64,000 nt of DNA, from NCBI GenBank assembly GCA_013362805.1, contig JABFVL010000004.1:74034-138033 (forward strand). The letters are read 5' to 3'. The notes beneath the pieces are model-generated. The model was not told the DNA's origin and made no database searches. It saw only the letters and a program-made list of their open reading frames with translations. The stretch is from Mycobacteriales bacterium. Its GTDB lineage: Bacteria; Actinomycetota; Actinomycetes; Mycobacteriales; QHCE01. Shown piece after piece: positions 44,798 through 56,830 of this stretch. Position 1 is the first letter of the stretch, and every line of letters begins with the position of its first letter. The position numbers and the translations under genes are program-made.

Positions 44798-46234
44798 CTA
44801 ACTCACCTGCGAGGCAAGACTATTAGCCACATCAGTGGCCGCCTCAAAAATTTCGTCTGGCCACACGCTAGCTATTACGGTTGCGATAACCGATAGGCCC
44901 AGGGCACACCAAATCCACGCGGAAATCGGCACACGGCGCACTGGAGGACCCGCAACAAACATGGCGCGGGCTAGACGCAGATACACGGCCGCTCCCACCA
45001 CGATGCCGATCGCAACAGCGGCGGAGACAATGCCCTCTATCCAGCCAACCGAACCATCAAATAGCGAGGACACCACAGCGACTTTGGCCCAGGTTCCCGC
45101 CAAAGCCGGCGGAATGCCAGCGAGCCCCAACAACCCGAAAAGCACAATCGCGGCCAGCACTGGCCGGTTTCGGGCGACACCTTGCAAATCCGCGAGAGTT
45201 CCGCCGTCATCGACTCCACGGAGCGCCAGTAGCGCCCCAAACACCACCAAGGAAATAGGGACATAGAAAGCGAGATATGCGAACGCCGCTTGGGCGCCAT
45301 CGGCGGTGACCAACGGGGCGACCACATATCCGAGTTGTGCCACCGAAGACCAAGCGAGGAGCCGCAGTGTGCGGACCTGGCGCAATGCCGCAACGCTGCC
45401 TATCACAATCGTGAGCACCGCGATCACACTCACCAATGCGCCCGGCGAACTCAAATGCGACCGTGCTGTGTTCAACGCGAGCACAAATGCGAAAAGCCCG
45501 CCGACTTTTGACACCGTCGCGAGGTAGGTCGTAACTGGTATGGGGGCCGAATCGTATGTGGTGGGCGCCCAAGCGTGAAACGGCACGGCGGCAAGCTTGA
45601 AAGCCAAACCAGCAACGAACAGCGCGGCGCCCAAAGCCGCCAACGGCGCCGCATCATCGGCGATGGATGCCTGGGCTAGCGCGCTGAAATGCACCTGTCC
45701 CGACACTGCGTACAACAGCGCCACACCCAGCAATGTCACCGATGTGGATACCACGGACAACACGAAAAAGGTGACCGAGCCACTGGACCCACGTGAGCCG
45801 AATGCGACCAACACATAAAGGGGCAAGGTAAGCAGTTCTAGCGCCACAATCAGCGTAAGCACGTCCCTGGCACCAAGCACACAGATGGCGCCCAGCAGCG
45901 ACCCGAGCAGCAGAAAAAGGTATTCCGCGGCTCTATCGCGGTTTTCGCGCAGCCAGGGAACCGATAGGCCCAACACGATGGCCACTGTCGCGCATAGCGC
46001 TGCGGCAGCTATCCTCGATTCACGAGATGTCACATAGGAGCACAATTGCTCTGTGCAAAAGCTACGCCGCTCGTCTGCGACTGTGGTAGCCAAGGCGGCG
46101 GTCACACCCAAACCGGCGAAGCCAACGCCGAGCAGCACTATTCGTGGAACTGGCACCAGATCTAGAACGAAGATCAGCAAAATCGCACCAGAAAGCGCAT
46201 AGAGCGGAGCTAGTGCGGCGTGGTCGATCGTCAT
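44798..46234 (-). CDS. nuoN: NADH-quinone oxidoreductase subunit N
   Basis: Polytopic antiporter-like subunit, last in the nuo order. ATG at 46232-46234 overlaps the nuoM stop (ATGA). Confidence 0.85.
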   Translation of the reverse strand: MTIDHAALAPLYALSGAILLIFVLDLVPVPRIVLLGVGFAGLGVTAALATTVADERRSFCTEQLCSYVTSRESRIAAAALCATVAIVLGLSVPWLRENRDRAAEYLFLLLGSLLGAICVLGARDVLTLIVALELLTLPLYVLVAFGSRGSSGSVTFFVLSVVSTSVTLLGVALLYAVSGQVHFSALAQASIADDAAPLAALGAALFVAGLAFKLAAVPFHAWAPTTYDSAPIPVTTYLATVSKVGGLFAFVLALNTARSHLSSPGALVSVIAVLTIVIGSVAALRQVRTLRLLAWSSVAQLGYVVAPLVTADGAQAAFAYLAFYVPISLVVFGALLALRGVDDGGTLADLQGVARNRPVLAAIVLFGLLGLAGIPPALAGTWAKVAVVSSLFDGSVGWIEGIVSAAVAIGIVVGAAVYLRLARAMFVAGPPVRRVPISAWIWCALGLSVIATVIASVWPDEIFEAATDVANSLASQVS

Positions 46235-47676
46235 GGCAATGCCTCCGCGATTTGCGTCACTGGGCCGAGGCTCAGACTCAATACCCCGTTGGGCCAAAGA
46301 CCCAGCACCAGCACACCCAACACCAACGGAACGACCGCGATAACTTCACCGAACGACCAACCGCTGGTCGGTTGAACCGCATCGGCGGGTCGGGCAATCA
46401 CTTGGCGCAATACTCGCAAAAAGTATGCGACGGTCAACGCGGCGCCGATAGCCGCACATGACGCCAACGTCATCCACAGGCCCCCGCCTCGTTGCACCGT
46501 CGCCACGATCGCGAAGGCTTCACCCCAGAACCCAGCCAAGCCTGGCAGCCCGAAGCTGGCTATTGTCGCTAGGCCAAAGATGGCGGCTAGCCGTGGAGCC
46601 GAAAAACGGATGCCACCAAGCTGAGCGAGCTCTCCAGTGCCGTATCGCTCTTTGATAATTCCCACCAAGACGAACAACAGTCCGGTGATAAAACCATGCG
46701 CCACGTTAGCGATGACGGCCGCTTGCAATCCAGCTGTCGTGCCGGCGGCGATCCCCAGCAACACAAAGCCCATGTGGCCAACACTTGAATACGCGATCAG
46801 TCGTTTGAGCTCTGTCTGAGCTAGACAAATCAACGCGCCGATGACGATGGCGCCGACAGCGAATATGCCGATCACCGGTGAGGCGTCCGCTGCGGCGTCG
46901 GGCATGGTGCCCACACCCACGCGAATAAAGCCGTAGGTGCCGAGTTTGAGCAGCACCCCGGCTAGCAACACCGAACCGACCGTCGGAGCTTCCGTGTGCG
47001 CGTCAGGCAACCAGGTGTGCAACGGCCAAAGCGGGCTCTTCACCGCGAAGGCCACCGCCAATATCGCGAAGACGGCTAGGGAACCATGTCCACCGCCTTG
47101 CAGGGTCACCAAGTTGGTGGTTCCTGCATCAATAGATAGCAGCACCACACCAAGCAGGAGCAGTGCGGAACCAACGAGCGTATAGAGCGCGAACTTACGC
47201 GCCGCATATGTGCGTTTCGCGCCGCCCCAACCGGCGATGATCGCGTACATGGGTGGCAGAGTGAGCTCGAAGAACACAAAAAACACGATGGTGTCCAGGG
47301 CGAGAAAAACCCCGACCAGGGCAAACTGCAGCACGAATATCAGCGCCAACAGCTGACGAACATCACGTTGAACGGGTCTATCCAACAAATAGGCGGCACA
47401 GCCCACGACGAGCAAAGCCGTGAGCCCAATGAGGGGCCAGCTCAGGCCGTCAACACCGAGATGCCAGTTCACTCCGAGGTTGGATACCCACCTGACATTC
47501 ACCTCGTGCCACATGCCGAAATGTTCTCGCCCGGCAAGCAATGCACAGCTCGCGGCGAGGATGATGATGGCGGCGCCCAATCCCCACCAAGGCGCTTGGC
47601 GCACCGGCACAAACAGCATCAGGATCGCAGCCAGGATGGGCAAGCCCAGGGCAGCGCTGAGAAGGAGGGCACTCAT
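46231..47676 (-). CDS. nuoM: NADH-quinone oxidoreductase subunit M
   Basis: Antiporter-like subunit (WLPDAHTEAPTVGSVLLAGVLLKLGTYG). ATG at 47674-47676 overlaps the nuoL stop (ATGA). Confidence 0.9.
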   Translation of the reverse strand: MSALLLSAALGLPILAAILMLFVPVRQAPWWGLGAAIIILAASCALLAGREHFGMWHEVNVRWVSNLGVNWHLGVDGLSWPLIGLTALLVVGCAAYLLDRPVQRDVRQLLALIFVLQFALVGVFLALDTIVFFVFFELTLPPMYAIIAGWGGAKRTYAARKFALYTLVGSALLLLGVVLLSIDAGTTNLVTLQGGGHGSLAVFAILAVAFAVKSPLWPLHTWLPDAHTEAPTVGSVLLAGVLLKLGTYGFIRVGVGTMPDAAADASPVIGIFAVGAIVIGALICLAQTELKRLIAYSSVGHMGFVLLGIAAGTTAGLQAAVIANVAHGFITGLLFVLVGIIKERYGTGELAQLGGIRFSAPRLAAIFGLATIASFGLPGLAGFWGEAFAIVATVQRGGGLWMTLASCAAIGAALTVAYFLRVLRQVIARPADAVQPTSGWSFGEVIAVVPLVLGVLVLGLWPNGVLSLSLGPVTQIAEALP

Positions 47677-56407: not shown

Positions 56408-56443
56408 GGTCCCGAGCCTAGCCCGCGACTTGCACCGACTCCG

Positions 56444-56830
56444 CTACACCCAGCGCAGAACACCTTTTCGCCAGGCATACAACAAACCCAGGGCCAGCAA
56501 CGCCGCGAAAATTCCCATTTCCACAGCCGAGCGCACCAACATTCCAGGCAGGTCAAACGCGAGAATCCACGGGAACAAGAAAATCGCTTCTACCGCGAAC
56601 AACAAATACATGTAGCCATATACGTAGTAACGAATTTGGCTGCGCGCCCAATCGCCTTCCACCGCGTCAACGCCACATTCATAAGCGCTGAGTTTGGCCG
56701 CACCGGGCGTCGCTGGGCGCAAGAACCGGTTCGCCAGCAGCGAGACACTAATGAACCCCACACCTACCAGAAGCATGAGCGCCAAGCTTGCGTACTGCCC
56801 GAGATACGAGGAGGTCACATCAACCACCAT
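56444..56830 (-). CDS. nuoA: NADH-quinone oxidoreductase subunit A
   Basis: 128 aa, 3 TM helices, the YECG motif (SAYECGVDAV) and YLLFAVEAIFLFPW. Confidence 0.9.
   Translation of the reverse strand: MVVDVTSSYLGQYASLALMLLVGVGFISVSLLANRFLRPATPGAAKLSAYECGVDAVEGDWARSQIRYYVYGYMYLLFAVEAIFLFPWILAFDLPGMLVRSAVEMGIFAALLALGLLYAWRKGVLRWV

Follow-up and report, generated by a model that had tools for sequence, protein, structure and literature searches.

A nuoD-less complex I gene cluster as a probable ortholog of the actinomycete nuo2 locus

A complex I gene cluster without nuoD, nuoE, nuoF and nuoG raises the question of whether its products could form a functional enzyme and, if so, where the missing NuoD would come from and what would donate the electrons. 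Such a cluster, consisting of nuoA, B, C, H, I, J, K, L, M and N on the minus strand (44798-56830, identified by Pfam), was analyzed within a 64-kb stretch of DNA, referred to here as the window.

Gene content and integrity of the cluster

In order to establish the gene content, every gene was compared to Pfam, and the results agreed with the predicted set of nuoA, B, C and H to N. When the 64-kb window was searched using the E. coli NuoCD, E, F and G proteins as queries (tblastn), no nuoD, E, F or G was recovered at E ≤ 0.4, and the NuoCD query matched the NuoC part only. Ten of the 11 subunits of an 11-subunit complex I are encoded in the window and NuoD is absent from it. The predicted abutment of the nuoC stop and the nuoH start was confirmed (gap of 0), as was the start/stop overlap along nuoJ-K-L-M-N (1–4 nt, given ATGA-type starts for nuoM and nuoN). 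The likely start of nuoM2 is at approximately 47676 (Logan gene call), resulting in a 4-nt overlap with nuoL, while nuoN2 likely starts at an ATG at 46234 that forms an ATGA overlap with the nuoM stop and has a GGAGG upstream. Coordinates for all features are provided in Table 1.

Table 1. Features of the nuo2-type cluster and its neighborhood in the window (TM, transmembrane)
Feature	Coordinates	Strand	Length	Family match or character
nuoN2	44798..46297	-	longest ORF 499 aa	PF00361
nuoM2	46231..47691	-	longest ORF 486 aa	PF00361
nuoL2	47673..49652	-	659 aa	PF00361 + PF00662
nuoK2	49649..49990	-	113 aa	PF00420
nuoJ2	49990..50502	-	170 aa	PF00499
X2, between nuoI2 and nuoJ2	50663..51223	+	186 aa	2-3 N-terminal TM helices (hydropathy)
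nuoI2, 2x[4Fe-4S]	51275..51814	-	179 aa	Fer4 families
X1, between nuoH2 and nuoI2	52013..52579	-	188 aa	soluble N-terminal part and 2 C-terminal TM helices (hydropathy)
nuoH2	52569..53534	-	321 aa	PF00146, E=1e-101
nuoC2	53535..54170	-	211 aa (NCBI call: 201 aa)	PF00329
RNHCP-domain gene	54215..54532	+	105 aa	PF12647, E=3e-28; tail-to-tail with DUF2252
DUF2252 gene	54529..55845	-	438 aa	PF10009, E=4e-104; weak APH-like kinase signal
nuoB2, carrier of Fe-S cluster N2	55904..56407	-	167 aa	PF01058
nuoA2	56444..56830	-	128 aa	PF00507, E=1.7e-28
Lipoprotein-like gene, between korA and nuoA2	56881..57510	-	209 aa	signal peptide followed by ...GVGAC...
korA, divergent from nuoA2	57695-59575	+		2-oxoacid:ferredoxin (acceptor) oxidoreductase alpha
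korB	59572-60615	+		2-oxoacid:ferredoxin (acceptor) oxidoreductase beta

All ten nuo ORFs were full length with complete Pfam coverage and were free of frameshifts and internal stops. The functional appearance noted in the original prediction also stood: NuoB2 retains the N2 cysteines (C27, C28, C93 and C123), its top solved-structure matches being complex I PSST/NuoB, and NuoI2 retains both CxxCxxCxxxCP motifs (at residues 54 and 102). Alignments were inspected for inactivating changes, and the catalytic and pumping residues examined were all conserved. These included the residue aligned with E. coli Y59 in NuoJ2, the two membrane glutamates of NuoK2 (E35 and E71), and the positions aligned with E. 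coli E144, D178, K229, D303, H334, H338 and K399 in NuoL2, E144, K234, K265 and E407 in NuoM2, and E133, K217, K247 and K395 in NuoN2. Across the whole window, Rfam matched four tRNAs only, with no matches in the nuo region. In a promoter and terminator scan of 44000-58000, counts stayed within ~1.7 sd of those expected from shuffled sequence, and none of the sites was informative.

Relationship to actinomycete nuo2 and the interrupting genes

The 80 best-matching genome loci, all from Actinomycetes, were used as the set of related loci. Throughout these best 80 loci, which cover several orders, the gene order was A-B-C-H-I-J-K-L-M-N, nuoC2 was adjacent to nuoH2 (the gap in Streptomyces being filled by the NuoC2 tail), and matches to D, E, F or G were absent (0/80). 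Given that none of the best 80 related loci carries nuoD, a nuoD-less cluster is not unusual in this lineage, contrary to the original prediction.

Subunits encoded in the window were 35–91% identical to their orthologs across actinomycete orders. They were 35–85% identical to Nonomuraea nuo2 versus 28–49% to its nuo1, a distance similar to that from E. coli (27–58% identity). By gene, identities to the relatives' nuo2 versus nuo1 counterparts were 46–61% versus 28% (Nonomuraea) for nuoA2, 76–91% versus 49% for nuoB2, and 64–78% versus 38% for nuoH2, with nuoI2 being 62–76% identical to the nuoI2 of relatives. The window NuoC2 was 100% identical to a database entry (P0001) annotated as NADH-quinone oxidoreductase subunit C of a Corynebacteriales bacterium MAG; its closest non-identical match was at 64%, with none between 64% and 100%.

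In Streptomyces, nuoA-N has been described as being accompanied by a second operon, nuo2, and by a separately located nuoD2 (PMC8388888; PMC3765725), where nuo2 corresponds to SCO4599-4608 and its function is described as unclear (PMC9239103). An 11-subunit complex I has also already been recorded in actinobacteria (PMC3144371). Because the best 80 loci are all of the nuo2 type, and because identity is higher to nuo2 than to nuo1 of Nonomuraea, the region is, judging from its sequence, an ortholog of actinomycete nuo2 (SCO4599-4608), a complex I type of 11 subunits without the N-module, rather than a canonical nuo cluster. The arrangement is already known: second complex I clusters of actinomycetes ordinarily lack nuoD-G. 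The non-canonical composition and electron input that had been proposed stand only in the sense of this known type, the N-module-less 11-subunit complex (PMC3144371) represented by nuo2 in Streptomyces.

The Streptomyces nuo2 locus resembles the window cluster in its genes and their order, in the absence of D, E, F and G, in nuoC2 abutting nuoH2, in korAB (SCO4594/5) lying divergently upstream, and in subunit identities of 34–89%. It differs in being contiguous and is thought to form one operon, whereas the window cluster is split by four unrelated genes, and its NuoC2 has a Pro-rich C-terminal tail of 200–350 aa versus ~60 aa in the window. The window genome (~58% GC, labeled Corynebacteriales) is itself far from Streptomyces. 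Canonical 14-subunit complex I (E. coli, Mycobacterium smegmatis, Nonomuraea nuo1) is built from homologs of the window subunits and shares their Fe-S ligands and pumping residues, but includes the nuoE/F/G N-module and an adjacent nuoD; the window cluster and the best 80 loci are without E/F/G, and the window cluster is without an adjacent nuoD.

The interrupting genes (DUF2252, RNHCP, X1 and X2, with RNHCP and X2 on the opposite strand) had been called foreign. Interruption by four genes of unrelated function was confirmed, but in composition the inserted genes are not foreign, their codon-position GC matching that of the nuo genes. The DUF2252 gene, which had no NCBIfam match, recurs in a Micromonospora locus (L015), where a 68%-identical copy also occupies the B|C junction. 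X1 overlaps the nuoH stop by 11 nt, has a coding-like GC pattern (GC1>GC2<GC3), and was also called as a gene on an 11.7-kb Logan contig (SRR11467474), the only contig on which exact copies of window proteins were located; X2 likewise has a coding-like GC pattern, and neither matched a Pfam or NCBIfam family. Homologs of X1, X2, RNHCP and the 209-aa lipoprotein-like gene were absent from the best 80 related loci. In relatives, different genes interrupt the cluster at junctions A|B, B|C, H|I and I|J, and interrupted nuo2 clusters with high subunit identity were seen in Micromonospora, Actinocatenispora, Actinomadura, Microtetraspora, Nonomuraea and locus L177. All four insertions are lineage specific, and the junctions at which they lie are interrupted in other genera too. 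Transcription units were assigned solely from strand and spacing; on that basis, the insertions would split the cluster into at least three units without inactivating it, and co-expression of its parts, given the opposite-strand insertions, may only be presumed.

Stand-alone nuoD2 in relatives

The chromosome of Nonomuraea gerenzanensis has exactly two NuoD-family places, one inside nuo1 and the other an orphan at 471,037-472,182, ~740 kb from nuo2 and with no nuo neighbor. A nuoD2 without a nuo neighbor was also found in 80 of 80 metagenome loci (at least 30 of them beside folK/folB/folP), and the panC...nuoD2...folK placement was seen in six further contigs. Given that relatives encode nuoD2 as a separate, distant gene, the missing nuoD is ordinary. 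The suggestion that nuoD lies elsewhere is correct for relatives, where nuoD2 is a conserved stand-alone gene. For the window genome, we infer from these relatives that its own nuoD2 is elsewhere in the genome, the expected position being between panC and folK. In Nonomuraea and Streptomyces, the number of genes and their co-occurrence suggest that NuoD2 is the partner of Nuo2.

Two candidates were rejected during the search for sequences from the window genome: P0448, as its nuoD2, came from another MAG, and L174/L175, which matched in GC (58.6%), belonged to a different organism. Candidates for nuoD2 could not be told apart by amino-acid composition, which was used as a stand-in for genome GC. 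In protein searches, the best 120 matches listed for the Nonomuraea NuoD2 query were all from Nonomuraea or Thermoactinospora, and a divergent NuoD2 (P0408, 58.6% GC) returned a broad set of matches, with none labeled Corynebacteriales among those listed.

The solved structures that best matched the relatives' NuoD2 were complex I 49-kDa/NdhH, and the matches to Mbh and FHL were far weaker. Cysteines were absent from the [NiFe] ligand positions at both the N-terminus (GYMHRGAEK) and the C-terminus (GSMFFVVGDIDK), and with these [NiFe] cysteine pairs absent, the NuoD2 of relatives is, by its residues, not a hydrogenase. The short NuoD2 shares an internal deletion with the NuoD of the Bacillus 11-subunit complex. 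NuoD2 proteins of relatives have Trp at the position of the quinone-binding Tyr; to our knowledge, this ligand Tyr is present in every complex I enzyme studied so far. The substitution might mean an enzyme without canonical quinone reduction.

Candidate electron donor and the proposed enzyme

Pfam families in korA/korB were POR, POR_N, PFOR_II and TPP_enzyme_C, and TIGR03710 scored 658.7 bits against a cut-off of 482.75. A divergent korA was located upstream of nuoA2 in 73 of the 73 testable related loci (distance of 100–7,898 bp), and the arrangement was observed in Streptomyces, Actinomadura, Microtetraspora, Actinocatenispora, Nonomuraea, locus L177 and the window genome. This linkage in all testable loci suggests ferredoxin as the electron donor of the nuo2 enzyme; it could also be inherited synteny without functional coupling. 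The window contains no ferredoxin gene, and no counterpart of the ferredoxin-docking subunits NdhS/V/O of cyanobacteria was identified. The lipoprotein-like gene is transcribed in the same direction as nuo2 and has one TM-like segment and no family match. Actinomycetes make F420, and F420H2 was considered as a donor (Fpo-like) but ranked below ferredoxin, with no FpoF/FrhB-like gene linked in the window or the related loci. Neither the korAB linkage nor the Trp substitution was found to be mentioned in the literature consulted on nuo2.

Taken as a whole, the probable explanation is that the cluster is a nuo2 ortholog whose NuoD2 is supplied in trans, forming an 11-subunit enzyme without the N-module and possibly with ferredoxin input. 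The cluster would supply the membrane arm in full (NuoA, H, J, K, L, M and N) together with NuoB, C and I of the four-subunit Q-module, with the fourth subunit, NuoD2, presumably provided by a stand-alone gene as in relatives. Electrons would pass from NuoI to NuoB (cluster N2) and on to a quinone site located where NuoB, NuoD2 and NuoH meet, with proton pumping via NuoL, M and N. This quinone site would be unusual, given that Trp replaces the quinone-ligating Tyr in NuoD2. More speculatively, the donor would be reduced ferredoxin from the neighboring 2-oxoacid:ferredoxin oxidoreductase, which would make the enzyme a ferredoxin:menaquinone oxidoreductase.

Alternatively, the nuo2 products could use NuoD, and perhaps NuoE/F/G, of the canonical nuoA-N operon to form an NADH-oxidizing isoenzyme with an alternative membrane arm. 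Hybrid machinery has been raised for Streptomyces (PMC9239103), and both Nonomuraea and Streptomyces carry a full nuo1 operon near nuo2. We consider this unlikely. Were NuoD1 to serve both complexes, one would hardly expect Actinomycetota to conserve a dedicated orphan nuoD2 that keeps its locus and is evidently under selection; the subunits that contact NuoD (NuoB2, C2, H2 and I2) are only 30–49% identical to their nuo1 counterparts, and hybrids between complex I clades are reported to be rare (Spero et al.).

The absence of nuoD from 64 kb would also fit a D-less module with a different job and no quinone reduction, such as a cation/proton translocator of the Mrp type or a scaffold that serves a different redox partner. 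The Trp-for-Tyr replacement in NuoD2 shows that this system does not adhere strictly to canonical quinone chemistry. A D-less module is improbable, given that the retained N2 ligands of NuoB2 and both NuoI2 clusters make little sense without a redox site, that relatives have nuoD2, and that every characterized complex I or group-4 hydrogenase relative that we know of pairs a NuoB-like with a NuoD-like subunit. Least probable, and very nearly refuted, is early decay, a possibility raised in the original prediction, in which insertions break up a nonfunctional cluster after nuoD-G loss. The cluster is indeed interrupted by four genes of unrelated function, of which two lie on the opposite strand, but the intact ORFs, the conservation of all checked functional residues, the retained translational coupling of C-H and J-N, and the 35–91% identity to orthologs across orders all argue against decay, as do the shared D/E/F/G-less architecture of the best 80 loci and the persistence of interrupted clusters in six relatives (Micromonospora to L177) with high subunit identity.

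The trans-supplied NuoD2 reading may be compared with other complexes lacking the N-module, among which ferredoxin and flavodoxin donors have precedent. The 11-subunit enzymes of the Bacillus cereus group, Desulfitobacterium, Bacteroidetes and the cyanobacterial NDH-1 core (Moparthi & Hagerhall 2011) also lack NuoE/F/G, keep Q- and P-module residues, and have an electron donor that is unknown or ferredoxin-type. In those systems nuoD lies between nuoC and nuoH (e.g., Bacillus) and the quinone Tyr is kept, whereas nuoD is displaced from the window cluster and the NuoD2 of relatives has Trp. Campylobacter jejuni complex I, which lacks NuoE/F, is reported to be fed by flavodoxin from a 2-oxoglutarate:acceptor oxidoreductase, and cyanobacterial NDH-1 is fed by ferredoxin; both resemble the proposal in accepting low-potential electrons without NuoE/F. 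Dedicated extra subunits serve these enzymes (Cj1574/5 in C. jejuni; NdhS, V and O in cyanobacterial NDH-1), whereas no counterpart was identified for the window cluster, and the nuo2 donor is a candidate only.

A more far-reaching reading, offered tentatively, is that Nuo2 with Trp-type NuoD2 may constitute a distinct proton-pumping ferredoxin:menaquinone oxidoreductase of aerobic actinomycetes that re-oxidizes KorAB-reduced ferredoxin at a quinone site re-engineered from Tyr to Trp, its loci (korAB-nuo2, and nuoD2 at panC-folK) having been separate since early in the phylum. Given that nuo2 is kept by Streptomyces and many other soil actinomycetes and its function is called unclear, the wider system is of more interest than the gap in this cluster. 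The invariant divergent korAB linkage, the fixed separate nuoD2 locus, and the Trp in place of the quinone-ligating Tyr are three leads that together give a testable hypothesis for how reduced ferredoxin may enter the respiratory chain in aerobic actinomycetes, and Trp-type NuoD2 is a naturally occurring variant on which the quinone site of complex I can be studied.

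Identity and integrity of the nuo2 cluster

Pfam assignments resolved the minus strand of the region into nuoA, nuoB, a DUF2252 gene, nuoC, nuoH, nuoI, nuoJ, nuoK, nuoL, nuoM and nuoN, with a gene for an unassigned two-helix membrane protein (X1) between nuoH and nuoI, while the plus strand carries an RNHCP gene and another membrane-protein gene of no assigned family (X2). The window is ~58% GC and has rpoB, rpoC, nusG and rplA upstream. The whole 64 kb was searched by tblastn using E. coli NuoCD, E, F and G as queries; no homologs of nuoD, E, F or G were recovered, and NuoCD matched in its NuoC part only. 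The nuoC stop directly meets the nuoH start (gap of 0), and the genes from nuoJ to nuoN overlap by 1-4 nt, given ATGA-type starts. All ten nuo ORFs are full length. The four N2 cysteines of NuoB, both CxxCxxCxxxCP cluster motifs of NuoI and two glutamates of NuoK are conserved, as are the positions aligned to E. coli E144/K229/K399 in NuoL, E144/K234/K265/E407 in NuoM and E133/K217/K247/K395 in NuoN. Identity to orthologs from other orders reaches 91% for NuoB2, 78% for NuoH2 and 76% for NuoI2. The original prediction of ten nuo genes without D, E, F or G, interrupted by four genes and with intact junctions and cluster ligands, was therefore borne out; its suggestion of early decay was rejected, given the full-length ORFs, the conserved functional residues and the high ortholog identity.

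A NuoC scan using one genome per species returned 580 relatives, and the best 80 were taken for comparison. These 80 were all Actinomycetes (Streptomyces, Micromonospora, Actinocatenispora, Actinomadura, Microtetraspora and unclassified MAGs); the order A-B-C-H-I-J-K-L-M-N was present in 80/80 of the best-matching loci and a D, E, F or G match in 0/80. The window cluster is the one known in Streptomyces as nuo2 (SCO4599-4608), of which "its function is unclear" (PMC9239103), and actinobacteria are among the phyla with an 11-subunit, N-module-less complex I according to Moparthi and Hagerhall (PMC3144371). The predicted non-canonical composition and electron input is thus real but not novel, since the type was already known, and the window holds an interrupted, previously undescribed instance of it. 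Window subunits are 35-85% identical to those of Nonomuraea nuo2 and only 28-49% identical to those of its canonical operon (nuo1), approximately the E. coli distance, which points to nuo2 as an old paralog and not a recent copy. In one unclassified Actinomycetes MAG (L004), the end of a canonical nuo operon is found some 5 kb upstream of nuo2.

In Streptomyces, nuoC2 and nuoH2 seem at first to be 1-1.6 kb apart, but this interval encodes a long NuoC2 C-terminal tail of 200-350 aa, low-complexity and Pro/Gly/Ala-rich, which runs up to the nuoH2 start so that the stop again abuts nuoH2. Unlike this, the window NuoC2 tail is short (~60 aa) and Pro/Gly/Lys-rich.

The 312-aa dehydratase gene sits between tRNA-Thr/Met and the secE-nusG-rplK-rplA region, where mycobacteria carry hadA-hadB-hadC; this position fits the Corynebacteriales/Mycobacteriales label.

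Coordinates of features in the window and in related loci
Sequence	Feature	Coordinates	Strand	Remarks
Window	nuo2 cluster	44798-56830	-	
Window	X1	52013-52579	-	
Window	X2	50663-51223	+	
Window	korA and korB	57695-60615	+	
Window	447-aa ORF	43233-44576	-	Immediately downstream of nuoN; lipase/esterase-like GHSQGG motif (…VKLVGHSQGGMSV…); no Pfam or NCBIfam family
Window	312-aa dehydratase	21639-22577	-	Single protein; FAS1-type dehydratase region and MaoC dehydratase domain
Window	CE1758-family FMN-dependent luciferase-like monooxygenase	34548-36290	-	708 bits; with its CE1759-family FMN reductase
Window	852-aa GAF-GGDEF-EAL protein	23429-25987	-	Cyclic-di-GMP turnover; adjoins tRNA-Thr and tRNA-Met genes
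Window	607-aa protein	39494-41317	+	Resembles ADP-dependent glucokinase/phosphofructokinase weakly and below threshold (Pfam 23 bits, NCBIfam 28 bits)
L004	End of canonical nuo operon (nuoL, M, N)	2-3895		
L004	nuo2	9053 onward		
Streptomyces loci L008, L012, L029	NuoC2 C-terminal extension	about 9,900-11,500		
N. gerenzanensis chromosome	Canonical nuoA-N operon	1.138-1.153 Mb		
N. gerenzanensis chromosome	korBA and nuo2	1.205-1.225 Mb		
N. gerenzanensis chromosome	Orphan nuoD2	471,037-472,182		L088:11953-13098

Interrupting genes and cluster modules

The four inserted genes had been called foreign. Their codon-position GC is that of their neighbours, and so they do not represent a recent acquisition of foreign DNA. 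Outside Streptomyces, nuo2 is repeatedly split at A|B, B|C, H|I and I|J by varying, unrelated genes (loci L003, L007, L015, L033, L050, L072, L084 and L177). These include a sulfate permease in Actinocatenispora, DUF2252 and glucose dehydrogenase in Micromonospora, an M48 peptidase in Microtetraspora, an HHH_3 protein in Actinomadura, and YaaA, SDR, S11 peptidase and AAA proteins in L177; Nonomuraea has gaps of 2-3.5 kb. The Micromonospora DUF2252 protein is 68% identical to that of the window, and both genes occupy the B|C junction.

In most interrupted loci nuoC-nuoH and nuoJ-N remain contiguous while other junctions break, so that the cluster behaves as separable modules, [A][B][C-H][I][J-N]. 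From gene geometry, at least three nuo transcription units were inferred in the window, because RNHCP and X2 lie on the opposite strand; a consensus promoter/terminator scan of 44000-58000 gave no useful sites. The X1 gene, which shares 11 nt with the end of nuoH, encodes two TM helices. Its product could be a lineage-specific accessory protein, but no X1 homolog was found in the 80 related loci.

Location and quinone site of NuoD2

One whole genome was examined, the 11.85-Mb Nonomuraea gerenzanensis chromosome (NZ_LT559118.1). It is filed in PLSDB as "Nonomuraea gerenzanensis plasmid I" but is evidently a chromosome, as it carries the two nuo operons along with korAB and the fol cluster; several other multi-Mb PLSDB "plasmids" (E. 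coli, Klebsiella, Proteus and Acinetobacter) are also chromosome-like. NuoD-family sequences occur at exactly two places, one within nuo1 and one orphan (nuoD2) about 740 kb from nuo2. No nuoD was present in the 86 kb around nuo2, and no other nuo genes lay within 12 kb of nuoD2, the neighbours of which are an acyltransferase gene, DUF3180, folK, folB and folP.

A search with this NuoD2 recovered 80 metagenome loci (L089-L168) at 73-86% identity; a nuo gene adjoined nuoD2 in 0/80, and at least 30/80 placed it beside folK/folB/folP. More divergent nuoD2 genes (39-60% identity), from NCBI MAGs GCA_044224695.1 and GCA_038233355.1 and from ENA contigs, some of them low-GC, also stand alone, between panC/DUF2520 and DUF3180-folK-folB-folP-folE-ftsH. 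This position was seen in L169, L174-L176, L180, L182, L088 and about 30 of L089-L168, with two bPH_2 genes or one small unassigned gene flanking nuoD2 in several loci. The Actinomycetota sharing it span 39-86% identity and genome GC of about 58% to 75%; given that such divergent members keep the same stand-alone position, nuoD2 was displaced long ago and its separate location has become fixed across the phylum. The proposal that nuoD lies elsewhere thus holds in relatives. Protein searches brought up no NuoD of the window genome among the matches listed; for this genome the best reading, by extension from relatives, is that nuoD is probably encoded elsewhere.

NuoD2 is a short form, with a 30-40-residue deletion common to the NuoD of the Bacillus 11-subunit complex; it is 38% identical to NuoD1, the D subunit of nuo1, and contains no [NiFe] cysteines. 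It carries Trp where the quinone-ligating Tyr stands, in the motif (A/T)NRHD(E)W versus DRxDY in canonical NuoD. The position corresponds to E. coli NuoCD Y273; in mouse NDUFS2 and cyanobacterial NdhH the aligned residues are DY. The conserved His is kept 49 residues before the Trp, the same spacing as between the Thermus Nqo4 equivalents, H38/Y87. Tyr occupies the site in NuoD of E. coli, Sinorhizobium and Bacillus and in Nonomuraea NuoD1. Across the surveyed sequences (L088, L089-L168 and database proteins P0241-P0531), Trp was found in 77/80 metagenome NuoD2, in 80 of the 150 nearest 50%-identity representatives, and in at least 103 of 116 relatives of the divergent protein P0408. In Yarrowia complex I, mutation of this Tyr severely impairs ubiquinone reduction.

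Linkage to korAB and the electron donor

Judged by homology, Nuo2 would pump protons in the manner of complex I but would lack a site for NADH, and because of this it would need another donor. Directly upstream of window nuoA2, and divergent from it, are korA and korB, encoding a 2-oxoacid:ferredoxin (acceptor) oxidoreductase; the korA product scores 658.7 bits on TIGR03710 (cut-off 482.75). Divergent korA was found upstream of nuoA2 in 73/73 related loci, these being the loci showing nuoA2 and enough upstream DNA, at distances of 100-7,898 bp. In L004 and L061, both unclassified Actinomycetes MAGs, no more than 100-121 bp separate the korA start from nuoA2, a distance implying that both genes share a control region. 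The arrangement also occurs in Nonomuraea and L177, and the linkage is kept despite the repeated breaks inside nuo2. No ferredoxin gene is present in the 64-kb window, and no docking subunit for ferredoxin was found. Elsewhere, the complex I of Campylobacter is fed by flavodoxin from 2-oxoglutarate oxidoreductase and cyanobacterial NDH-1 by ferredoxin, and for the Desulfitobacterium 11-subunit enzyme PFOR plus ferredoxin is the leading donor candidate. From synteny, ferredoxin reduced by KorAB is the likeliest donor for Nuo2, a tentative assignment with somewhat less than even confidence. Together with a Trp-type NuoD2, Nuo2 may form a ferredoxin:menaquinone oxidoreductase that is coupled to KorAB and has a modified quinone site.
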